Shown in pieces: positions 10,693-11,352 of a stretch of 64,000 nt of DNA (position 1 is the stretch's first letter; each line of letters starts with the position of its first letter). The position numbers and the translations under genes are program-made. Source of the DNA: Candidatus Nomurabacteria bacterium. GTDB lineage: Bacteria; Patescibacteriota; Saccharimonadia; Saccharimonadales; Saccharimonadaceae. The notes beneath the pieces were generated by a model. The model saw only the letters and a list, made by a program, of their open reading frames with translations. It had not been told where the DNA came from and made no database searches. The DNA is taken from the NCBI GenBank assembly GCA_031262695.1, contig JAISHF010000004.1:107993-171992 (forward strand), read 5' to 3'.

Positions 10693-11352
10693 ATGGAAGA
10701 TATAAGCAAGCAAGCAAGCAAGCAAGCAAGCAAGCAAGCGTTAGCGTCGCGTAAAAAGTCGGCGGAGGCGGTTGGCGGTGGGTTTATTAAGTCGCGCGAG
10801 CGGGTCAAAAACGCTGGCGAGGTTTTTACGCAGTCACGCGAAGTCAAAAATATTCTGGCATTGACGCAGGCGACGGACAATGTATTTTGGCGTTTTTTGG
10901 AGCCAGCGTGTGGAAACGGGAATTTTATTGTTGAGATTATTGAGCAGCGGCTGGCGCGGATTAAGAAAAATCCGAATTATCGTCCGCTTGACAGGCGTGA
11001 GTTTGCGATTTTGAAGTCGGTTAGCACGGTTTATGGGGTGGATATTGCGGCGGATAATATTGAGGAGTGCAAAAAGCGGGTGACGCGGACGATTTTGAGT
11101 TATTTGCCGAAAAAATCCTCGGCCGGGTTTTATAAGGCACTTGCGAAAATTCTGGATACGAACTTGCTTGTCGGCGATATGCTAAATGGCAAAGACAAGA
11201 TTAATTTTACTGAATATGAATTTTTCGCGCCAGAATATTTTAGTCGTGGTAAAGTAAAGCGGAAAATATATGCATTGACCGACATGGAAAACGAACTCAC
11301 AAATCATCCGCGGGAGGAATTCCCGCTGGTGGCGATTAGGGAGATGGCGTAA
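10693..11352 (+). CDS. DNA methyltransferase-like protein with SAM-binding motifs only (no canonical motif IV); contains the 5' tetranucleotide repeat
   Basis: GEVFTQSREVKNIL (motif X-like) and FLEPACGNGNF (motif I FxGxG) follow the M.TaqI/Eco57I-type order. No (D/N/S)PP(Y/F/W) is present. Stop overlaps the next ATG (TAATG). Confidence 0.6.
   Translation: MEDISKQASKQASKQALASRKKSAEAVGGGFIKSRERVKNAGEVFTQSREVKNILALTQATDNVFWRFLEPACGNGNFIVEIIEQRLARIKKNPNYRPLDRREFAILKSVSTVYGVDIAADNIEECKKRVTRTILSYLPKKSSAGFYKALAKILDTNLLVGDMLNGKDKINFTEYEFFAPEYFSRGKVKRKIYALTDMENELTNHPREEFPLVAIREMA
10704..10739 (+). repeat. perfect tetranucleotide simple-sequence repeat (AAGC)9, equivalent to (AGCA)8
   Basis: Read directly: aagc x9 without interruption, starting 11 nt after the ATG. 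It encodes (SKQA)3. Confidence 0.97.

Follow-up and report, generated by a model that had tools for sequence, protein, structure and literature searches.

A perfect tetranucleotide tract, (AAGC)9, lies near the start of the first open reading frame (ORF1) of a four-gene cassette in a stretch of 64,000 nucleotides (nt) from a metagenome-assembled genome (MAG) deposited as Candidatus Nomurabacteria bacterium (assembly GCA_031262695.1, contig JAISHF010000004.1, positions 107,993 to 171,992 of the forward strand). This whole stretch is hereafter referred to as the window. With a probability of roughly 0.6, the tract is a hypermutable slippage switch that turns ORF1 on and off, ORF1 being the head of an acquired, split operon that resembles the Type IIG and Type ISP restriction-modification systems. 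Judged from its ribosomal protein L2, whose nearest named relatives are mostly Candidatus Saccharibacteria and Saccharimonadales and also include MAGs labelled Nomurabacteria, the host is a bacterium of the candidate phyla radiation (CPR; Patescibacteria) of the Saccharibacteria type.

The operon would be transcribed from one strong promoter as a leaderless messenger RNA (mRNA), with translation of ORF1 beginning only at the 5'-terminal AUG at 10693. Slipped-strand mispairing at replication would add or remove 4-nt units; unit counts divisible by three would give full ORF1, with one SKQA more or less for every three units in a disordered tail, and all other counts would stop translation 15-21 codons in, and it could not resume ahead of the conserved core. 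ORF1 would in this way be switched on and off reversibly within the population. The OFF state would probably also lower the expression of the methylase and the helicase-nuclease through lost translational coupling and polarity, because the four genes are predicted to share one promoter and their junctions overlap, and the outcome would be a switchable defence system. We infer that the length of the tract varies fast enough in this organism to be of use, that the system requires ORF1 and that switching affects the downstream genes.

Tract, reading frame and start codon

The features of the switch region, all on the forward strand of the window, are as follows, with protein lengths in amino acids (aa).

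10656..10684, + strand: predicted promoter, TTGACA, a 17-nt spacer and a TG-extended TATAAT (12/12 hexamer matches plus TG)
10693..10695, + strand: ATG start of ORF1, 8 nt after the -10 element
10693..11352, + strand: ORF1, 219 aa, small methylase-like protein whose residues 1-30 are a variable, low-confidence extension
10704..10739, + strand: (AAGC)9 perfect tetranucleotide tract, ORF1 codons 4-16, encoding (SKQA)3; proposed slipped-strand switch, flanked by TATGGAAGATAT on one side and GTTAGCGTCGCG on the other
10742..10744, + strand: TAG stop, in frame at 2 mod 3 units; 8 units give 15 aa
10752..10754, + strand: TAA stop, in frame at 1 mod 3 units; 10 units give 21 aa

Tandem Repeats Finder reports the tract at 10704-10739 with period 4, 9.0 copies and 100% matches, in agreement with a direct reading of the sequence. 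The tract starts 11 nt from the ATG at 10693, as had been described in an earlier, sequence-only reading of this DNA. That reading had also held that the frame is at present open and encodes (SKQA)3, and a 219-aa ORF was indeed found, with a product consisting of MEDI-(SKQA)3 followed by 203 residues. When the locus was rebuilt in silico with 0-15 AAGC units, full-length ORF1 was obtained only at 0, 3, 6, 9, 12 and 15 units, and all other counts gave products of 7-25 aa. Loss of one unit brings the TAG at 10742-10744 into frame and gain of one unit the TAA at 10752-10754, and both out-of-frame states end at most 16 nt past the tract; the rebuilt variants thus bear out the earlier claims that these are the two stops and that any change by one unit truncates the protein within 16 nt. 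The assembled nine-unit state is ON for ORF1. The anatomy of a contingency locus is present, with the repeat inside a reading frame and a one-unit change toggling between a full-length and a truncated product. The nine units lie above the threshold of at least three units used in a survey of potentially phase-variable tetranucleotide tracts (Atack et al. 2018, PMC5909438).

A repeat of this kind is far beyond chance. A repeat scan of the 64-kb window gave no other notable simple repeat besides a T8 run, the remaining tetranucleotide tracts amounting to one of 3 units, and about 399 kb of Saccharibacteria-type loci hold no tetranucleotide tract of at least 4 units and three of 3 units. For a 12-nt piece of the AAGC tract with one mismatch allowed, shuffling the window gives an expectation of 0.66 matches, and only one such one-mismatch match occurs outside the tract. 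Since the 36-nt repeat is perfect and without interruptions, it points to recent or ongoing slippage.

Only two assemblies in the collections contain the cassette, namely that of the source MAG and a contig of the Logan collection (L081, run SRR14710920), which begins AGC(AAGC)6 and continues with the same 3' flank as the window. The tract is not an assembly artefact, because this independent assembly also carries it. The Logan contig starts inside the tract, which is expected of an assembly with k=31 if the tract is about k long or heterogeneous. The exact start of the contig, with 27 nt of repeat against the 30 of a clean k=31 exit, was also considered and judged not interpretable.

The position of the start codon decides whether the tract is translated. 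The predicted promoter ends 8 nt before the ATG at 10693, which implies that the ORF1 mRNA would be leaderless or have a leader of at most 2 nt. Such an arrangement appears to be a habit of this genome, as TGnTAnAAT stands 6-8 nt before the ATG at 12-13 of the 56 long, non-overlapping ORFs of the window, all of these being without a ribosome-binding site, and a GGAG-type ribosome-binding site precedes 19 other long ORFs among the 56, mostly operon-internal genes. The TGNTANAAT motif occurs 33 times in the window against 7.5 expected (4.4-fold enriched). Examples of leaderless-type starts are found at 3715-3723(-), 17060-17068(-), 34014-34022(-), 47362-47370(+) and 53034-53042(+). On the + strand no TGNTANAAT motif lies between 10685 and 15881, the next being at 15882, and the promoter at 10656-10684 is thus the only recognisable candidate for ORF1 to ORF4.

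The conserved core of the protein family starts at IKSRxRV, residue 32 of ORF1, and no in-frame ATG, GTG or TTG occurs between the tract and residue 57, where the first start codon after the tract is found. Because the core begins at residue 32 and the next in-frame start comes only at 57, the conserved ORF1 protein could, as predicted from the frame, only be made from the ATG at 10693 and through the tract. A true start downstream of the tract, which had been named as one finding that would overturn the switch, is thus argued against by the promoter, by the spacing habit and by the lack of a rescue start. A GAGGTGA at 10673-10679 resembles a ribosome-binding site and sits within the spacer of the predicted promoter.

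The cassette, its first gene and the island

The remaining genes of the cassette and its surroundings are listed below.

11352..12983, + strand: ORF2, 543 aa, Eco57I-family N6-adenine DNA methylase with NPPY and a C-terminal target-recognition part
12663..12687, + strand: in-frame 15-nt tandem repeat TCGCCGATTCTCGGC in ORF2, 1.67 copies (SPILG-SPI)
12980..13390, + strand: ORF3, 136 aa, overlapping each neighbour by 4 nt
13387..15957, + strand: ORF4, 856 aa, helicase of the ResIII type; weak T5orf172 (GIY-YIG-like) match at the N-terminus
10471..17211, no strand: island slot of variable content flanked by RNase J and prfB, occupied by the four-gene cassette and a Fic-family gene
16010-17053, - strand: Fic-family gene (PADLOC SoFic-like, 3.5e-15)

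ORF1 carries motifs X, I, II and III (GEVFT, EPACGNGNF, YGVDI and GDML), which make up the N-terminal half of a gamma-class N6-adenine methylase, and the catalytic NPPY motif was not found in it. Its family matches are weak (a sub-threshold Pfam methyltransferase; a PADLOC Type II methylase at 3e-08). The AlphaFold model has a mean confidence score (pLDDT) of 85.6, with residues 1-30 at 44-63 and the core at 85-97, and weakly resembles the N-terminal part of CamA, BsaXI, MmeI, BrxX and LlaGI (E = 5e-03, TM ~0.39). In a profile comparison, residues 40-120 of ORF1 align with residues 26-104 of ORF2 at 75% probability. Because of the motifs without NPPY, the weak likeness of fold and the alignment with ORF2, ORF1 is a paralogue of the cofactor-binding half of the methylase and not a methylase in its own right. 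The earlier reading had likened the tract to those of mod/methylase genes, but ORF1 is no such gene: it is without NPPY, and the Eco57I-family methylase that carries NPPY is ORF2. The cofactor-binding loop is canonical in ORF1 (EPACGNGNF) and degenerate in ORF2 (DPAVKTGVF), and this contrast hints that the two proteins may work together.

The ORF1 family comprises proteins of about 190-260 aa, with 184 matches in protein searches and 491 confirmed loci among species-representative genomes. The N-terminal extensions of the homologues range from 3 to about 60 residues and are rich in K, S and Q. Because the tail differs in length from one homologue to another and disorder is predicted for it, the repeat can sit in what would be a change-tolerant, non-conserved part of ORF1. 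No protein derived from ORF1, full-length or truncated, was found in a collection of 15 billion proteins. The same collection holds its neighbours from the same contig, RNase J as MDR0980046 and ORF2 as MDR0980048, and the numbering leaves one slot between them.

ORF2 matches PF07669 (9.5e-33) and the PADLOC models PDLC03375 (2.5e-60) and PDLC03626 (1.6e-49). ORF3 gave no match in family and defence-model searches; a small gene occupies the same position in many homologous cassettes. ORF4 matches PF04851 (3.6e-08), PF10544 (7.4e-04) and PDLC03626, REase_MTase_IIG (2.5e-41), and is presumed to be the restriction/translocase subunit. The single-chain Type IIG model PDLC03626 is shared out over the two large proteins, ORF4 covering its positions 150-808 and ORF2 its positions 864-1359, and fused proteins of 1373-1377 aa sit behind ORF1 homologues in some genomes. 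On these two grounds the cassette is classed as a putative split and permuted Type IIG/ISP-like restriction-modification system and not as Type III. The criterion of a single polypeptide for Type IIG fails here, the modules being split over ORF2, ORF3 and ORF4 and their order permuted.

Other assignments were considered. A Type III system was rejected on the methylase side, ORF2 being an Eco57I-family protein (PF07669) with the gamma-class order X-I-IV and not a beta-class Mod, and on the Res side, where ORF4 is a ResIII helicase but its sole nuclease-like match is the N-terminal T5orf172 and not a C-terminal endonuclease. A Type III-style reading is therefore replaced, since ORF2 falls in PF07669 and the PADLOC Type II and Type IIG models match instead. 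Membership in BREX, DISARM, MADS or Hma was also rejected, the matches being weak, partial and confined to methylase components. Sequence searches with ORF2 and ORF4 against solved structures gave no matches.

The genes are tightly joined. TAATG links ORF1 to ORF2 at 11350-11354, as noted earlier, and the following junctions are GTGA and ATGA; the tract gene heads a tightly overlapped restriction-modification operon. Because the junctions overlap and no + strand promoter motif occurs until 15882, ORF1 to ORF4 appear to form one transcription unit. The order ORF1, methylase, optional small gene and helicase is kept from Saccharibacteria to Collinsella, Olsenella, Bacteroidales and Verrucomicrobia.

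In a syntenic relative (L092, JGI 3300042601, about 70-76% DNA identity), RNase J and prfB are found in the same order, and 1.6 kb of small ORFs (12107-13679 of that locus) fill the slot that in the window spans 10471-17211. Over 10001-16000 the G+C content, in 2-kb windows, is 0.435-0.484 against about 0.50 on either side. Because the content of the slot differs in the relative and the G+C is lower over the cassette, 10471-17211 is interpreted as a horizontally acquired defence island.

Other observations concern the edges of the island and the window as a whole. At the right-hand end of the island, tandem repeats with periods of 30 nt (2.6 copies) and 20 nt (1.9 copies) occupy 17087-17192, between the Fic gene and prfB, and the Logan contig ends at window position 17313, about 120 nt past them. 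In RNase J, about 160 additional N-terminal residues (8305-8790), rich in R, G, K and N, precede the canonical domain; its NCBIfam matches start from residue 161, and the protein has 721 aa against 701-702 aa in close relatives. GC skew is positive (0.08 to 0.38) in all 2-kb windows of 1-64000 regardless of gene orientation, which suggests that the window as a whole belongs to a single replication arm.

Repeat variation and alternative explanations

Over 6.6 kb the Logan contig and the window have 0 mismatches, and their sole difference is one copy of the 15-nt repeat in ORF2, of which the contig (1951-1990) has 2.67 copies (SPILG-SPILG-SPI). Of the changes seen at this locus, that in repeat copies is therefore the fastest. 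L013, the nearest homologue (56% identical), also has 2.67 copies of its own version of the 15-nt repeat (about 7925-7963). The copies are identical within each lineage and differ at 3/15 positions between the lineages of the window and of this homologue; being alike within lineages and unlike between them, they indicate that this repeat has probably slipped repeatedly. It directly precedes the conserved CTETY motif in the C-terminal, recognition-side half of the methylase, and its copy number might affect the recognition side of the enzyme. A one-copy change of slippage type within the same cassette speaks for the switch proposed for the tract, and restriction-modification genes are a classic class of repeat-switched genes. 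It is possible, though we hold it only tentatively, that the system varies at two levels, the tract switching the whole operon from the 5' end of its leaderless transcript and the ORF2 repeat perhaps altering recognition; the tract would then be the first repeat-driven contingency locus on record for an ultrasmall, episymbiotic CPR bacterium.

Several results weigh against the switch. ORF1, the gene that would be switched, is without a catalytic motif, and ORF2 has a ribosome-binding site of its own (GGGAG), so the downstream genes may stay expressed with ORF1 OFF. The two assemblies showed no length polymorphism of the AAGC tract: nine units are seen in one, and the other, the Logan contig, starts inside the tract and gives no unit count. 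In the 15-billion-protein collection no exact match was found to ORF1 variants of 0, 3, 6, 12, 15 or 18 units, nor to four forms of ORF1 starting at downstream codons. A metagenome scan with the 3' flank of the tract gave 0 matches and a viral scan likewise 0, and a metagenome scan guided by protein reached 57% identity at best, with no close relative. Lastly, in a comparative scan of 80 homologous loci from other genomes (L001-L080), 0/80 showed a simple repeat inside the ORF1 homologue or at its start, because of which there is no sign of recurrent selection for switching in the ORF1 family. Among the exact-protein look-ups, those of ORF3, ORF4 and Fic led to one Logan contig, L081, those of ORF1 and ORF2 to no contig, and those of RNase J, the upstream 134-aa gene and the downstream prfB to no further Logan contig on record.

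The comparison of tract length among related genomes, which had been suggested as a check of the switch, thus yielded no repeat in this gene at any of the 80 loci, and the AAGC tract is a lineage-specific acquisition and not a property of the ORF1 gene family. This result also favours the main rival, which we regard as rather unlikely: that the tract is an incidental coding microsatellite, a chance expansion of an SKQ stretch in a dispensable tail with no selected switching, whose length may drift and whose out-of-frame variants are losses of function removed by selection. SKQ-like stretches that could have seeded such an expansion are held in the N-termini of homologues (for example EESSKQK in P0043), and the sole assembled state is ON, the look-ups of variants having given no other length. 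Microsatellite tracts that are not maintained gather interruptions, however, and the nine-unit tract is perfect and an extreme outlier in the window and in related genomes. The tract moreover stands right at the beginning of a defence operon's leading gene and has stops in both other frames within 16 nt, which is the typical anatomy of a contingency locus.

The only comparable repeat was found in Neisseria iguanae (locus L043, 5820-6002), where (TGCC)7 stands directly after an ATG about 130 nt upstream of the ORF1 homologue. It opens a separate upstream ORF of 61 aa that overlaps the start of the homologue, and DNA uptake sequences occur at the locus. It was rejected as a parallel to the tract, because in simulation the repeat is never in frame with the homologue and because the locus has lost its methylase and helicase. 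The arrangement may be what is left of a repeat-controlled locus, or repeat control of another kind.

A further explanation, which we consider quite improbable, is that steps of three units alter the number of SKQA copies and so tune an interaction or the stability of ORF1. In-frame states do exist at 0, 3, 6, 9, 12 and 15 units, and the ORF2 repeat in the same cassette shows in-frame variation in copy number. In tetranucleotide tracts, however, single-unit changes are the commonest slippage events, and here all of them are frameshifts; the tail, in turn, is non-conserved and predicted to be disordered, and gives no sign of a role sensitive to its length. That the tract is untranslated, with the start lying downstream or the promoter wrongly predicted and the tract in a 5' untranslated region, is judged highly improbable. 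The GAGGTGA at 10673-10679 allows other transcript architectures, and the ORF1 protein of this contig is missing from the large protein collection in which its neighbours are present; against this stand the lack of an in-frame start between the tract and residue 57 with a core from residue 32, and a 12/12 promoter with an extended -10 element whose spacing recurs at about 12 genes of the window. An assembly or sequencing artefact is scarcely credible, for although short-read assemblers can mis-size simple repeats and the Logan contig breaks at the tract, two independent assemblies share the repeat and its 3' flank, and it is the exact unit count of the MAG that could be off.

The slippage switch of ORF1 therefore remains the favoured explanation, in a form that departs from the phasevarion proposed in the sequence-only reading. 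The repeat is not in the catalytic methylase and the restriction/helicase gene looks intact, and because that gene is intact, switchable defence is a simpler reading than a phasevarion.

Relation to known switching systems

Tetranucleotide contingency loci are known from Haemophilus influenzae and Neisseria, as in mod with AGTC/AGCC repeats and lic1A with CAAT repeats. The repeat of lex2A, GCAA, is the same as AAGC in another register. The present locus is like these in its perfect tract just after the start, its frame-dependent ON state and the stops in both other frames, and in that the target is a restriction-modification locus. It is unlike them in its uncultured Saccharibacteria-type CPR host, its predicted leaderless mRNA and its accessory methylase-like gene in the place of a methylase or a surface-structure enzyme, and in that its switching is a prediction from sequence.

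Phasevarions are governed by phase-variable Type III mod or Type I hsdM/hsdS genes (Atack et al. 2018, PMC5909438; Atack et al. 2019, PMC7383803). The cassette shares with them a repeat tract that exceeds the survey threshold and lies in a restriction-modification gene. It differs in having this repeat outside the catalytic methylase, in belonging to neither Type I nor Type III and in a restriction gene that looks intact. With the Type IIG and Type ISP systems, represented among the fold relatives by LlaGI, MmeI, BsaXI, DrdV and BrxX, it has in common the coverage of PDLC03626 and a gamma-class NPPY methylase. Unlike the single-chain helicase-methylase fusions of those types, it is split, with the methylase before the helicase; it adds the conserved small methylase-like ORF1 and the small ORF3, and its nuclease candidate is a weak T5orf172 and not Mrr or PD-(D/E)xK.

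For Candidatus Saccharibacteria, 'epigenetic invertons' of hsdS have been listed in silico (Huang et al. 2020, PMC7672463). These too are predicted switchable restriction-modification systems of the same candidate phylum, but they work through invertase-driven DNA inversion of Type I specificity genes and not through repeat slippage. The ORF2 repeat has a counterpart of another kind. In EcoR124I and EcoR124II, specificity changes through the copy number of a short in-frame repeat in HsdS. The in-frame 15-nt repeat of ORF2 likewise differs by one copy between otherwise identical assemblies, but ORF2 belongs to a different protein family. A gene with hypervariable 9-mer repeats has been described in a Gracilibacterium (PMC6851277). 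No account of phase variation driven by repeats in Saccharibacteria or Patescibacteria turned up in the literature searches, in accord with the earlier reading, to which no description of such a feature in CPR/Saccharibacteria was known. Looking for the sample identifiers in the literature likewise gave no match.

The mechanism itself is textbook and introduces no new principle; the gain lies in its taxonomic reach and in a testable handle on the cassette. If confirmed, the switch would extend slippage switching of defence to CPR/Saccharibacteria, beyond the well-studied host-adapted pathogens, and in view of the tiny genomes and epibiotic lifestyle of CPR, how these organisms balance phage defence against DNA uptake is of particular interest. 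Confirmation would also mark as important a widespread small methylase-like protein that is encoded at the head of hundreds of Eco57I-methylase/helicase cassettes in different phyla. Should the two-level reading prove true, genome-reduced symbionts would share the bet-hedging strategy of host-adapted pathogens.

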